From Fervidicoccaceae archaeon (GTDB lineage: Archaea > Thermoproteota > Thermoprotei_A > Sulfolobales > Fervidicoccaceae): 64,000 bases of DNA. Position numbers: made by a program. Numbering within the stretch: position 1 is the first letter of the stretch; every line of letters begins with the position of its first letter. Below, piece by piece: positions 55,125 to 58,100 of this stretch. Location of the stretch: the NCBI GenBank assembly GCA_038734945.1, contig JAVYOA010000009.1, forward strand, positions 372,001-436,000. The letters are read 5' to 3'.

Positions 55125-58100
55125 TGAAAATATATCCTACTCCTCTCTTTGTTTCATCTAAACATGTATCCTATCAATTTCCATTAATTTATAAACCGCA
55201 TCATTTAAAGGGTGTTCTAGCATAGAGATTAATGAAATGACAGGTGTGATGGGATGCCTTCTAGAGGAAAAAACAATTCTCCTACATATAAAATCGAGAA
55301 CATTGTAGCCACTGTAAGCATAGATCAAAAACTTGATCTTCACGAAATTGAGCGTAGAGTGCCTCGCGTAGAGTACAATCCAGACCAATTTCCTGGTTTA
55401 GTATTCAGACTAGAGAGGCCAAAGATAACAGCACTGATATTCAAGTCTGGAAAAATGGTTGTGACAGGCTCCAAGAGCACAGCAGAGCTTATAAATTCAG
55501 TGAAGAGAATCATAAAGACCTTTGCTAACCATGGAATAAACATCTCCCATCAAGCACAAGTTCAAATACAGAATATTGTAGCCTCAGGTAATCTTGGGGT
55601 TGGAGTTAACCTGGAAGAAGCAGCCTACAAGCTCGAAAACATAATGTATGAACCAGAGCAGTTTCCTGGGCTCATCTATAGAATGACCAATCCATACGTC
55701 GTTCTCCTGATCTTCAGCAGTGGAAAAATGGTTATAACTGGAGCCAAAAGGGAAGAAGAAGTTGAGATGGCTGTTAGGAACATCTATAAAACGCTCTCCG
55801 ATTTGGATTGTTTAGTTGAAGATATAGAAGGGGAAAAAACAGAGGAGTTCTTTTAAAGATCTGAATCGCAAATTATTTTAACTTAAATCCTTTAGAAAGA
55901 GCTTAGAGGGCCCGTGGCTCAGCCTGGTAGAGCGGCGGAGGCCGGAGCCCGATACCCCTTTCCCCTTTTTCACAATGGCCACCTTGGGAACTAAAAAATT
56001 GCTTAATCCCTTCAATGGCTAAGTCATGAGCGAAAATTATATAATCTGGGTAGCTTATCCAGATCCATCGGGGTATCGGGCGAAGTCCGCCGAGGCTCTT
56101 AACCCGTAGGTCCCGGGTTCAAATCCCGGCGGGCCCGCCACAGAAATTGAGAGAAGGGCTCTTGGGGGATCATCCCCCAATCTGTTTTCAGCTTACCAAT
56201 GAGTAAATGAGATCTTCAAGAGCCTCAAAATCTTGAGACCTCCTGTTTCTAGGCCTAGGCAGATCCACCTTGATCTCCTTTGAGATTCTGCTCGGCCTTG
56301 GAGTTAGTATAACTATTCTATCTGCTAGAAATATGGCCTCGTCTACAGAGTGAGTTACCATTACTATCGCTTTTAGAGGTGTAATTCCGGACAACCAAAT
56401 GTCCAATATTTCAGCCCTCAGCGTCTCAGCAGTTAAGGGATCTAGGTTTGAAAAGGGCTCATCCATTAGGAGAATTTCTGGCTGGATGGCAAGTGCTCTA
56501 GCAAAGTTTACTCTCTGTCTCATCCCCCCACTTAGCTCGTGGGGATAAAGATATTCAGAACCAGATAGTCCAACTAGAGAAATATACCTGCGGGCCGTTT
56601 CAGTAGCTCTTTCTCTATCCAGCCCCAAGTTCTTGAGAGGAAGTGCGACATTTTCTAGAACATTCATCCAAGGAAGAAGAGAGGGGAACTGAAAGACGAA
56701 ACCCATTTTTGGCATTCTCCCCTCATTATATATTATCTCTCCACCACTGTAATTCTCCACTCCTGCTATGATTCTGAGCAATGTTGACTTTCCACAACCG
56801 GAAGGACCAAGAATTACAAGAAATTCTTTCTTGATATCCATCGTGATATCATCGATTACCTTTACTTTACCGTTCTCCGAAACGTACTCTTTTGAAATTT
56901 TTCTCAGAGATATCAATATTTGTTCCATGTTTATCATACCTCAGTCAACAACATGGTACTTCTTTCTTCCATATGAATACAGCCATGCCCAAAATGTCCT
57001 GTTGAAAACAACTATAAAAAACGTCAATGTCAGTACATAGATCGCTAGAGACGTCGTATCTCCGGATACGGTAGATGAAGAAATTAGGTAGCCTATTCCA
57101 AAGAAAGAGATGACTTGTGTTCCCAAATAAGCGTATTCGGCAACGATAGTCGCATTCCATGCACCCCCCCAGGCAGAAGACATTCCAGACAGAACGTAGG
57201 GAGTTAGCATAGGAACAAAGATTCTAAAGAACTTATAGCGCCCTTTTATTCTATAAATTTTGGCCATTTCCATAATATTTTTTTCCATCGGCCCTATCCC
57301 AGTAAGTGCTATATTGAAGAAAATGTACCAAATTGCTCCCTGAAATATTATGAACAGAGAAACAAGCACTGGAGGAAAACCTCTTAGGATGAGAGCTACA
57401 AAAATAGGCCACCAGAGAGAAGCAGGAACTGATGAGAGGAATTCACCTGAGAGAATGAAGAGCTTTCGAAACAGCTTTTTTCTCTCATAAAGAAGATATG
57501 AGAGAAACATCACAGATATAGTTCCGATGCCAAGAACAATAGCCACCCTTAATAGTGAGATGGAAACCCCTTCAAGCGCGCTGATCAAAACCAAGCTAAT
57601 TTTCTCAGAGCTCATCGAAAATGTAATTTTGCCGGATATTCTCTGCATGAAGAAAACTGCGGCAATAAGAAGGATAGAGATGAGAGATATTTTCAACCAG
57701 TTTCTGACTTTTCTTGATAATGCATATTCTTTTCTTGAGATCGCAGCCAATCTTATTATCAAAGCATCGCTTACTGAGCTCCAGAATTTCGTAGAGCTCC
57801 TCCAAAAAATTCTGAATGGAGCTCCTATCATAGGCATTACATTTTCTTCTGAAGAAGTTTGAGTTACTATTGAATAAAAAGGATTCCATATAAATACATA
57901 TACTCCTATTGAGAGAATCACTATTGAGAGAATGCCAAGGGCTATTTGCTCAGCATTACCTGCCTCCAACCCAAGCTGGATATATGTGCCAATTCCCTCA
58001 AGCATATAGTTAGTTGAACCCATAGTTATTATTTCAGAGGATACAAGGAAGAAAAGTCCCCCAGCCCACGAGATTATTGAATTCTTCGCTATCGCAGGGA

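Follow-up and report, generated by a model that had tools for sequence, protein, structure and literature searches.

The tRNA-Lys(CUU) of this hot-spring Fervidicoccaceae archaeon (genome G000) is encoded in two adjacent pieces, which lie 156 nt apart on the same strand and are interrupted between tRNA positions 30 and 31. The locus is probably a split tRNA gene whose halves still lie head to tail and whose product would be trans-spliced at a bulge-helix-bulge (BHB) motif. Each piece has promoter-like sequence of its own, and in two sister genomes the same halves have most likely been dispersed by separate inversions that broke between them. Positions refer to the window, the 64,000-nt stretch of contig JAVYOA010000009.1 (positions 372,001 to 436,000) that was analysed. 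Scores of BRE/TATA boxes come from a position weight matrix (PWM) constructed for this analysis and trained on sequence upstream of the 43 tRNA genes, with the internal site of this locus excluded. The features of the locus are as follows.

55866-55881, + strand: BRE/TATA box of the 5' half, TCGCAAATTATTTTAA, 42 nt before tRNA position 1, PWM score 11.1
55908-55938, + strand: exon 1 (5' half), GGGCCCGTGGCTCAGCCTGGTAGAGCGGCGG, tRNA positions 1-30 by sequence and ARAGORN, with the acceptor 5' strand, the D arm, and the 5' strand of the anticodon stem
55939-55958, + strand: trailer behind exon 1; the 5' bulge has A55939 as its third base, and GG at 55940-55941 belongs to the short h' helix
55947-55958, + strand: pairing segment of the trailer, GCCCGATACCCC, complementary to the leader; the same trailer is found in G001 and G002
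55959-55971, + strand: T-rich run, TTTCCCCTTTTTC, with T5 at 55966-55970; putative terminator of the 5' half
55972-56029, + strand: spacer with no recognised features; it contains the breakpoints of both sister inversions
56030-56045, + strand: internal BRE/TATA box, GCGAAAATTATATAAT, PWM score 11.2; candidate promoter of the 3' half
56070-56094, + strand: leader of the 3' half; GGGGTATCGGGC at 56070-56081 pairs with the trailer
56089-56094, + strand: junction bases of the leader; GCCG at 56089-56092 is a strand of the central BHB helix, and the 3' bulge opens with A56093 and G56094
56095-56140 including CCA, + strand: exon 2 (3' half), GCTCTTAACCCGT...GGGCCCG, tRNA positions 31-73 by sequence and ARAGORN
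56098-56100, + strand: anticodon CTT, within exon 2
56138-56140, + strand: encoded CCA, end of the 3' half
56162-56180, + strand: terminator-like hairpin TTGGGGGAT-C-ATCCCCCAA, then TCTGTTTT, downstream of the 3' half

Joined together, exon 1 and exon 2 make up a complete cloverleaf whose anticodon is CTT, and the genome has no intact second copy. When long introns were permitted, ARAGORN modeled a single tRNA-Lys(ctt) with an intron of 156 nt at C9:427908-428140 (window 55908-56140), among 43 tRNAs that include one Lys(ctt) and one Lys(ttt). A pattern search with exon 2 matched only the Lys(CUU) and Lys(UUU) loci, which agrees with the preliminary description of this as the sole tRNA-Lys(CUU) gene. 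That description placed the gene at 55909 to 56137 with an interruption of about 150 nt; the locus and its interruption are real, the start is moved to 55908, and the exact length is 156 nt. The locus was not detected by ARAGORN at default settings or by Rfam at the gathering score. RF00005 gave 41 matches over the whole genome and none here. At E<=1 over 55800-56250 no tRNA row appeared, only weak T-arm-type matches, and the 16.7 bits once attributed to the locus were not recovered. Since standard tRNA finders miss the gene, such genomes appear to be without tRNA-Lys(CUU).

The exon 1 31-mer is identical in G001, G002, G003, and G007, and the 35-nt pattern of exon 2 is identical across many genomes of the order. 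A stem resembling the hairpin at 56162-56180 is also present behind the 3' half in G001 and G002. Another motif behind the 3' half, AAGGGCTC, was set aside as too unspecific, with 83 genome-wide matches to a loose pattern. The 5' part precedes the 3' part, and therefore the gene is not a permuted tRNA gene. Pieces at separate loci are one mark of a split tRNA gene; here the pieces are 156 nt apart, on one strand and in gene order, and the accepted split tRNA-Asp gene of Aeropyrum pernix departs from that mark likewise.

The two pieces could be brought together by a helix that adjoins the junction, as in split tRNA genes. The 12-bp complementarity of trailer and leader that was described earlier is perfect (GCCCGATACCCC at 55947-55958 with GGGGTATCGGGC at 56070-56081), lies within a 30-nt inverted repeat of 77%, and was reached in 0 of 5000 shuffles. 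Formation of the dimer between the halves gains -11.9 kcal/mol at 80 C. The sequence of this helix varies by genus and pairs in each, with 13+4 bp in G003 and 10+ bp in G007. Between the helices of g1 and g2, three adjacent pairs differ, each of which is read here as altered on both sides. The leader ending ...GCCGAG| is common to all of the interrupted forms in family f1 and to many in the Desulfurococcaceae (f6). The BHB register has 22 standard pairs and gives the exact mature anticodon stem. It lies above the minimum-energy pairing at both 37 C (-35.8 vs -43.6 kcal/mol) and 80 C (-12.1 vs -18.1 kcal/mol), and its h' helix is of 2 bp only. The genome contains two EndA-domain ORFs (C1:82711-82965 and C2:192847-193083) and one RtcB.

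Candidate signals for a separate 3' transcript are found inside the intervening stretch. An A/T-rich box had been placed about 45 nt before the 3' part; the box is real, and its distance is corrected here, as it starts 65 nt and ends 49 nt before exon 2. It begins 40 nt upstream of the leader, and the upstream box lies 42 nt before tRNA position 1, so that each piece has its own promoter-like sequence, with nearly equal scores (11.2 and 11.1). In ordinary tRNA genes of this genome the box most often stands 41-42 nt before position 1. A score of 11.2 is about that of the median tRNA promoter of the genome, with 22 of the 43 tRNA genes scoring higher. Scores of 11 or more occur at 430 of 2,677,452 strand positions genome-wide, and on either strand of 55800-56200 only two matches reach 7, the internal box being one of them. 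All 19 split 3' halves that were examined have their best box starting 61-70 nt before exon 2 (65 nt in this genome); among these are G124 and G125, whose coordinates are the ones printed for S. hellenicus and S. marinus.

The box is also conserved. As the preliminary description had it, the sister genomes G001 and G002 have the same halves, box, and leader in dispersed form. Across the three genomes the box stands out as an island of conservation. Invariant columns in their alignment number 15 of 17 in the box, 6 of 22 between box and leader, and 3 of 41 upstream of the box. Dispersal of the halves in G001 and G002 means that the 3' half must be transcribed alone there, with the box as its promoter. 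That the box has been kept while its flanks diverged to near-random argues for its use in the G000 lineage as well.

The T-run said to follow the 5' part is indeed present, as TTTCCCCTTTTTC at 55959-55971. Among the five 5' halves of family f1, a T5 is found in G000 and a T6 in G001, G003, and G007, at most about 13 nt from the helix; the dispersed 5' half of G002 has no T-run. A run of at least five T within 25 nt downstream is present in 7 of the 43 tRNA genes of this genome. Since T5 is a modest terminator, such runs are this infrequent, and G002 has none, read-through could be substantial.

As proposed here, the 5' half would be transcribed from the box at 55866-55881 through exon 1 and the 20-nt trailer, and its transcription would mostly end within the T-rich run (55959-55971). 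For the 3' half, transcription would be driven by the internal BRE/TATA box at 56030-56045, with a predicted start at about 56067-56070, the first base of the leader, and would run on through exon 2 with its encoded CCA. This separate transcription is read from the sequence. Trailer and leader may then anneal through the 12-bp G+C-rich helix, by which the junction would form a relaxed BHB consisting of helix h (AGAG/CTCT), the bulge AG|G31, the central helix CGGC/GCCG, the bulge GG|A, and the 2-bp h'. A two-subunit splicing endonuclease would cut both bulges, and RtcB would join G30 to G31. Some read-through transcription probably takes place alongside the split halves. A read-through transcript would adopt the same motif and could be spliced in cis.

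It is possible, if unlikely, that the locus is an unusually long ordinary cis-spliced BHB intron. A single precursor of about 235 nt would then be made from the upstream promoter, the T-run would be read through, and the internal box would be a silent or little-used leftover. The exons are indeed colinear on one strand, 156 nt apart, with a BHB at their junctions, and ARAGORN models one intron-bearing gene. In the fold of the whole stretch (z -2.8) the intron is closed by the 12-bp helix, and the T5 run is not a strong stop. For A. pernix tRNA-Asp, a read-through product was detectable by RT-PCR (PMC3218864). However, an ordinary cis intron has no internal start or stop signals, and this one has a T5 behind the trailer and a box scoring 11.2. 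Of the 11 introns that ARAGORN predicts in the genome, only that of Lys(CUU) has a T-run longer than 3 (5) or a PWM score above 4 (11.2). The other 10 have T-runs of at most 3 and scores of at most 3.6; the 108-nt intron of tRNA-Pro(CGG), for example, has a longest T-run of 2 and a score of -3.8. The conservation of the box amid near-random flanks and its position, the same as in all 19 split 3' halves, also oppose this reading. Two sister lineages also tolerated inversions through the supposed intron. In metatranscriptome X13, 0 reads fell on 55250-56950 (1.7 kb), which, with about 3% of the run read, weighs neither for nor against either reading.

The sister inversions were mapped by comparison with the relatives. 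In G001 one contig carries both halves, 9 kb apart and on opposite strands, and in G002 they lie on two contigs. G001 is the same as G000 apart from an inversion of 47432-55958, with similarity returning at 56031, and G002 is the same apart from an inversion of about 56031-65700. The similarity of G000 to these genomes stops by 55958-55971 and restarts at about 56028-56031. The two inversions are separate events, and each has a breakpoint between the T-run and the box. Neither disrupts exon 1 and its trailer, or the unit of box, leader, and exon 2. Since two lineages survived inversions that cut the "intron", both halves were apparently already expressible alone. Inversions broken between the putative terminator and promoter would thus have dispersed the halves in the sister genomes. 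G001 has at least one extra small event, as a 68-nt sRNA-like element beside its left breakpoint is flipped in place; G001 is therefore not the product of one clean inversion.

Other members of the family provide further states of the gene. G004 has a single gene with an intron at 30/31, which is 26 nt in length rather than the 24 nt given earlier, and G006 has an intact gene without an intron, as had been noted. G003 and G007 represent two further genera with a split gene, and their 5' halves, which had been left unverified, were located. Their halves are dispersed, and their trailers are complementary to their own leaders. The local order of G003 is too rearranged for its dispersal event to be mapped. 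Linkage of the TBP gene to the 5' part is kept in G000, G001, G002, and G003, and also in the intact gene of G006. Linkage of the 3' half to an ABC ATPase gene is kept in G000 to G003, and the two linkages are joined in G000 only. The most probable history is that G000 has retained the original state of the split, the head-to-tail order of TBP gene, 5' half, 3' half, and ABC ATPase gene.

The halves could also be separate units whose tandem order is secondary, in which case a dispersed ancestor, such as one with the G001 order, was rejoined by an inversion toward G000. A CTP synthase tree gives (G001,(G000,G002)) with a support of 83 for the inner pair. On this tree a tandem ancestor requires two inversions and a G001-like ancestor also requires two, no more, and G003 and G007 are dispersed as well. 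However, rejoining would need to reinstate the order, the strand, and the precise spacing of about 110 nt without leaving foreign sequence in the spacer. It must also account for two conserved linkages, to the TBP gene and to the ABC ATPase gene, that are united only in G000, and for the lack of any junction in common among G001, G002, and G003. No inverted repeats for a flip-flop were found at the breakpoints. Secondary tandem order is thus considered rather improbable. Searches against G000 and the fetched loci found no repeats at the breakpoints that could explain the inversions; the stretch 55959-56069 has no other copy there beyond the box and shows no trace of a mobile element. One candidate mediator of the G001 inversion was the 8-mer GGGGTATC, which the leader has in common with the guide of a C/D-box-like sRNA (46916-46975); it was rejected, because recombination there would separate the promoter from the 3' half, contrary to what is observed. 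A tandem duplication of the whole gene followed by complementary deletions was also considered; the two boxes share 13 of 18 positions, which is too short for a test.

The tandem order appears to be genuine. As previously noted, a raw metagenome contig crosses the 5' half, the spacer, and the start of the 3' half: a 4040-nt contig of run X1 covers 55250-56121 without a single difference, although X1 may be the source sample and its support is then not independent. In the independent runs X4 and X5 no contig covers 55991-56047; the contigs of X4 end at 55888 and resume at 56114, and X5 has no depth over 55991-56047. A scan of metagenomes with the leader and the start of exon 2 found two contigs, both in the G002 arrangement, and no further tandem copy. 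That assembly or binning joined the halves wrongly, as the gap in X4 and X5 might suggest, is highly improbable in view of the unchanged X1 contig, the length of the contig of the locus (>500 kb in a genome of nine contigs), and the flanking genes, which on each side are those linked to the respective half in relatives.

The closest known system is the tRNA-Asp(GUC) of A. pernix (Chan, Cozen, and Lowe, 2011; PMC3218864). Its halves were described as adjacent on the same strand with a promoter inside a "121-nt intron", the locus having formerly been read as an intron-bearing gene. RT-PCR and northern blots revealed the two halves as separate transcripts, and the gene was termed a possible "true evolutionary intermediate" between an intron and a split gene. 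The two loci are alike in their head-to-tail order on one strand, in an interruption of more than 100 nt, and in an internal BRE/TATA box, which in A. pernix resembles the upstream promoter. In both, the intervening stretch continues for 20-25 nt beyond the predicted start, and a G+C-rich stem adjoins the BHB (14 bp in A. pernix and 12 bp here). A. pernix differs in the tRNA (Asp), the site of the split (37/38), and the family. Its halves were seen as RNA, whereas those of the present locus are predicted from sequence. No sister species with these halves in dispersed form was available for A. pernix, whereas here two sisters have separate inversions.

The same tRNA is split at the same junction, 30/31, in Staphylothermus (S. 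marinus and S. hellenicus) and in Nanoarchaeum equitans (PMC3218864). These genes share with the present locus an identical 35-nt exon-2 pattern, the leader ending ...GCCGAG|, a trailer/leader helix of 12-13 bp, and a box 64-65 nt before exon 2. Their trailer and leader sequences are unrelated to those found here. In Staphylothermus 4.7 kb separates the halves and the 3' half comes first, unlike the 156 nt and gene order of this locus, and in N. equitans they are far apart. The tRNA-Asp(GUC) of Thermosphaera aggregans is described in PMC3218864 as having adjacent halves from a local rearrangement inside the tRNA gene; they are convergent on opposite strands rather than on the same strand, and resemble G001 with a very short inversion. 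Short introns are found at the same 30/31 site in G004 (26 nt), G093 (35 nt), and G109 (32 nt). They end in ...GCCGAG| in G004 and in ...GCTGAA| in G093 and G109, close to the leader ending here. These are short hairpins without promoter or T-run, whereas the intervening stretch of this locus has both.

The preliminary description overstates the novelty. The tandem split as an intermediate had already been described for A. pernix tRNA-Asp (PMC3218864). Intact, intron-bearing, and split forms of Lys(CUU) at 30/31 within one family are not unique either, as they also coexist in the Desulfurococcaceae, where G121 is a second tandem case with halves 299 nt apart. The proposal of separately transcribed tandem halves fares better, having partial support from the anatomy (trailer, T-run, own BRE/TATA box, and leader at the predicted start), the conserved box, and the inversions. 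The arrangement of adjacent halves is rare but known; the novelty lies in the lineage, in the series of forms within one genus, and in the mapping of the breakpoints.

It is tentatively suggested that the tandem split is a retained gateway state, although the case for this falls somewhat short of even. The spacer between terminator and promoter would be the preferred or uniquely tolerated breakpoint, and at least three lines (G001, G002, and G003) would have dispersed the halves independently, starting from a single tandem ancestor. The dispersal inversions of G001 and G002 map to within about 60-70 nt of spacer. The same state recurs in G121, in another family, and in A. pernix Asp, with another tRNA.

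An old dispute concerns whether split tRNA genes are relics of early two-piece tRNAs or late products of disrupted genes. The present locus illustrates how inversions may scatter split tRNA genes. One genus holds the tandem form together with two different dispersed forms, whereas the A. pernix case was put forward as an intermediate without close relatives at the next step. The order of events, from an intron to a promoter-bearing intervening stretch and then to dispersal, thereby becomes testable. If the gateway reading is true, the gain of a promoter inside an intron would precede and permit rearrangement of the genome, and this would be direct evidence that split tRNA genes arose late and in steps.

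The sole tRNA-Lys(CUU) gene of this Fervidicoccaceae archaeon (genome G000) would be made up of two tandem transcription units, a reading that is well supported by the anatomy of the locus and by comparison with relatives and that is considered probable. The alternative is a single gene with a long cis intron. The locus is detected neither by default ARAGORN nor by Rfam at the gathering score. A whole-genome search with RF00005 gave 41 matches, none of them at this locus, and no tRNA row appears there at E<=1. When introns as long as 200 nt were permitted, ARAGORN reported a single tRNA-Lys(ctt) with a 156-nt intron and with ends identical to those of the exons. 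Sequence and long-intron prediction thus bear out the preliminary description, in which the gene was interrupted after position 30 and was the only one for Lys(CUU) in the genome (1.34 Mb, nine contigs, 99.95% complete). The splice point can be written as 29/30 or 30/31 because a G is repeated there; 30/31 is used here, following the literature. The features of the locus are as follows (window positions).

55254-55856, (+), TBP gene (Pfam TBP, E 7.9e-65), adjoining the 5' half
55908-55938, exon 1, GGGCCCGTGGCTCAGCCTGGTAGAGCGGCGG, tRNA positions 1-30 (acceptor 5' strand, D arm and four anticodon-stem bases)
55939, A that starts the intervening stretch, followed by GG and then a 5-nt loop
55947-55958, trailer 12-mer, GCCCGATACCCC
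55959-55971, T-rich run, TTTCCCCTTTTTC
between the T-rich run and the internal box, featureless spacer of 58 nt
56030-56045, internal A/T box, GCGAAAATTATATAAT, separated by 24 nt from the leader 12-mer
56070-56081, leader 12-mer, GGGGTATCGGGC
end of the leader, reaching exon 2, GAAGTCCGCCGAG
56095-56140, exon 2, GCTCTTAACCCGT...CGGGCCCG plus CCA, tRNA positions 31-73 with anticodon CTT

The trailer and leader 12-mers are perfectly complementary, as had been claimed, and lie inside an inverted repeat of 30 nt (77%). When the two flanks (40 nt each) were shuffled 5000 times, 12 bp were never reached. When the 232-nt locus was folded, the trailer/leader helix appeared in the centroid as well as in the minimum-energy structure (z -2.8; 2 of 200 shuffles fold equally well). 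A bulge-helix-bulge (BHB) register is available at the junction, with 22/22 standard pairs. It consists of helix h (A21-G24 paired with C32-T35), a 3' bulge (A and G, the cut, then G31), a central helix (C25-C28 paired with GCCG at 56089-56092), a 5' bulge (G29 and G30, the cut, then A) and helix h' (GG paired with CC), with the 12-bp helix next. The archaeal splicing enzyme cleaves behind the second bulge base, and the mature anticodon stem is obtained exactly when each bulge is cut there. The register lies above the minimum-energy pairing (-35.8 vs -43.6 kcal/mol at 37 C; -12.1 vs -18.1 at 80 C) and is therefore a relaxed motif. The genome contains two EndA-domain ORFs (197 and 167 aa) and one RtcB, which is the set expected of a crenarchaeal two-subunit endonuclease plus ligase.

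A 16-nt BRE/TATA matrix was learned from the 70 nt upstream of 43 ARAGORN tRNA genes of G000, with the internal box outside the training set. Boxes fitting its consensus, GGGAAAAGATTTAAAA, usually begin 41-45 nt ahead of tRNA position 1. The internal box scores 11.2 and the upstream box of the same gene (55866-55881) 11.1; 22 of the 43 tRNA genes score above the internal box. These two boxes are the only hits of at least 7 on either strand of 55800-56200. Scores of at least 11 occur at 430 of 2,677,452 strand positions genome-wide, or about 0.025 expected per 156 nt. The leader helix begins 40 nt after the start of the internal box, the same spacing as from box to tRNA start in normal genes, so that the predicted transcript starts with the pairing segment. 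A box search over the 90 nt before exon 2 in 19 split 3' halves, drawn from two families, placed the start of the best box 61-70 nt ahead of the exon in every one (scores 5.9-14.0; 65 nt in G000). Two of the 19, from G124 and G125, served as a positive control, their halves matching the S. hellenicus and S. marinus coordinates in Table 1 of Chan et al. 2011 (PMC3218864).

Conservation of the box was determined by aligning a 111-nt stretch that runs up to and into exon 2 in G000 and its two sister genomes, G001 and G002. Invariant columns numbered 15/17 in the internal box, 6/22 between box and leader, 3/41 upstream of the box, and 29/31 from the leader onward. In both sisters the 3' half stands alone and must therefore depend on the box. 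That the box was kept in G000 though its flanks are near-random in divergence argues for its use in G000 too. The TATA-like box of the preliminary description is thereby upheld at the level of sequence.

Oligo-T runs stop archaeal RNA polymerase. The T-run that had been placed right behind the 5' part is present as a T5 inside 55959-55971, starting 8 nt past the trailer helix. At least four T's within 25 nt downstream are found at 19 of the 43 tRNA genes, and at least five at 7. Of five 5' halves compared in the family, those of G001, G003 and G007 have a T6, all runs lying no more than about 13 nt from the helix, and that of G002 is without a T-run. Against a long cis intron, a T-run >3 or a matrix score >4 was found only in tRNA-Lys(CUU) among the 11 introns that ARAGORN predicted in G000. 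The 108-nt stretch in tRNA-Pro(CGG) (C9:44116-44317, outside the window; no Rfam match at this locus) has a T-run of 2 and a matrix score of -3.8. Without promoter-like box or T-run, it looks like a true long cis intron. Among the 43 genes called with long introns allowed there are no tRNA-Gln and tRNA-Trp, one tRNA-Thr, and odd anticodons (Arg acg, Ser aga). This genome may contain further hidden tRNA genes, disrupted or mis-called.

The family was represented by eight genomes in five genera (g1-g5). The forms of tRNA-Lys(CUU) in the relatives are as follows.

G001 (g1, genus of G000), 5' half C4:26160-26212(-), 3' half C4:35338-35411(+)
G002 (g1), halves on contigs C77 and C116
G003 (g2, one contig), 5' half at 360.8 kb(+), 3' half at 272.9 kb(-)
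G007 (g5), halves on contigs C20 and C11
G004 (g3), single gene with a 26-nt intron
G006 (g4), intact gene
G005 (g3, 61% complete), no match for tRNA-Lys(CUU)

The halves are dispersed in both sister genomes, as had been described, on opposite strands of one contig in G001 and on two contigs in G002. Other genera do possess an intron-bearing (G004) or intact (G006) gene; the intron, given previously as 24 nt, is 26 nt long in G004. The exons are identical across G000-G003 and G007. All interrupted forms in the family start with AG(G/C) after exon 1 and end with GCCGAG before exon 2. The helix sequence varies between genera, yet it pairs within each genome: GCCTTGCCTAGTACC pairs with GGTACTAGGCAAG-A-GC in G003, and CGGTGCCTCC with GGAGGCACCG in G007. 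Read directly from the sequences, the g1 and g2 helices can be aligned over 10 positions, and three neighbouring pairs differ between them on either strand (CGA/TCG vs TAG/CTA). Downstream of the CCA of the 3' half (window 56141-56187), CCACA-N(8-12)-(A/T)GGGCTC(C/T) is kept in three genera (G000-G003, G007), in contrast to other, diverging flanks, and in g1 a G5/C5 hairpin comes next. The motif, by itself very common, is also found downstream of tRNA-Pro(CGG) in G000.

The contig of G001 is colinear with the window save for an inverted 47432-55958, and similarity is back from base 2 of the box (56031). In G002, contig C77 carries CTP synthase, TBP, the 5' half and then inverted window 65651->62771, and contig C116 carries inverted 68203->65798 and then the 3' half with an ABC ATPase gene. 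This is the expected product of a single inversion of about 56031-65700. The G002 junction is also found in two metagenome contigs, one of 176,891 nt. The G001 inversion lies to the left and the G002 inversion to the right, and therefore the sisters depart from G000 by different inversions. Both breakpoints fall between 55959-55972 and 56027-56030. One more small event is required for G001 because a 68-nt sRNA-like element beside the left breakpoint is flipped in place.

46916-46975, (-), C/D-box sRNA-like element, weak match to archaeal sR55 (20.3 bits, E 0.0087, under the gathering score)

This element has 91% identity in G001, where its flip adjoins the left breakpoint. Its D-guide contains the 8-mer GGGGTATC, with which the 3'-half leader opens.

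The TBP gene is immediately upstream of the 5' part in G000-G003 and of the intact gene in G006, and the convergent ABC ATPase gene is downstream of the 3' half in G000-G003. Both linkages are combined only in G000 among the genomes of the family. The linkage of TBP with tRNA-Lys(CUU) is retained in four of the five genera. In a quick IQ-TREE of CTP synthase (30 rows), the family is a clade (support 99) with (G003,(G001,(G000,G002)83)99)98, and G004, G006 and G007 are basal without resolution. On this tree, two inversions are needed whether the ancestor of the genus was tandem or G001-like. Retention of the tandem order in G000 is favoured, because re-joining must restore order, strand and spacing exactly, because no repeats able to drive a flip-flop were found, and because G001, G002 and G003 have no junction in common.

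At the level of the order (325 genomes), the exon-2 pattern occurs widely. A stretch of 260 nt ahead of exon 2 was inspected in 40 genomes of three other families (f3, f4 and Desulfurococcaceae, f6), hand-picked and mostly one to three per genus. The gene is intact in 23 and has a 32- or 35-nt intron at 30/31 in two. Exon 1 is absent from this stretch in the other 15, which represent 13 genera of Desulfurococcaceae. Intact and 35-nt-intron genes occur side by side in genus g27. The split 3' halves of Desulfurococcaceae (loci L137-L167) each have their own box and G-rich leader, and their range extends far beyond Staphylothermus. A scan of 63 genomes of that family for 5' halves gave pairs on one contig at distances of 3.6-3.8 kb (G103, G104, G106, G107, G108, G110), 4.7 kb (G124, G125), 7.3 kb (G123) and 15.6-15.7 kb (G097, G118). 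In these pairs both halves are on one strand, the 3' half coming first. In G121, also of Desulfurococcaceae (C1:858567-858940; locus L178 1068-1440), tRNA-Lys(CUU) is again tandem, the second such case. Its exons are 299 nt apart in gene order, its trailer and leader pair perfectly over 22 bp, and its BRE/TATA-like box (score 11.2) begins 69 nt ahead of exon 2; a T-run of at least 4 is absent before +121.

The presence of all stages of one tRNA in one family had been put forward as new. The tandem split itself is of a kind already known from tRNA-Asp(GUC) of A. pernix, for which Chan, Cozen and Lowe 2011 (PMC3218864) describe adjacent halves on one strand with a promoter within the former '121-nt intron'. 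Half-transcripts were detected there by RT-PCR and northern blot and read-through by RT-PCR only, and the gene was termed a possible 'true evolutionary intermediate'. Split tRNA-Lys(CUU) at 30/31 is known from Staphylothermus and N. equitans (PMC3218864), and the excerpts of two 2014 reviews (PMC4033280, PMC4090602) list no additional cases. No literature on split tRNA in Fervidicoccaceae, or on a tandem Lys(CUU) in any lineage, was found in a search outside subscription journals and GtRNAdb. What is new is the lineage, the within-genus series with its mapped breakpoints, and a hint that the tandem state recurs.
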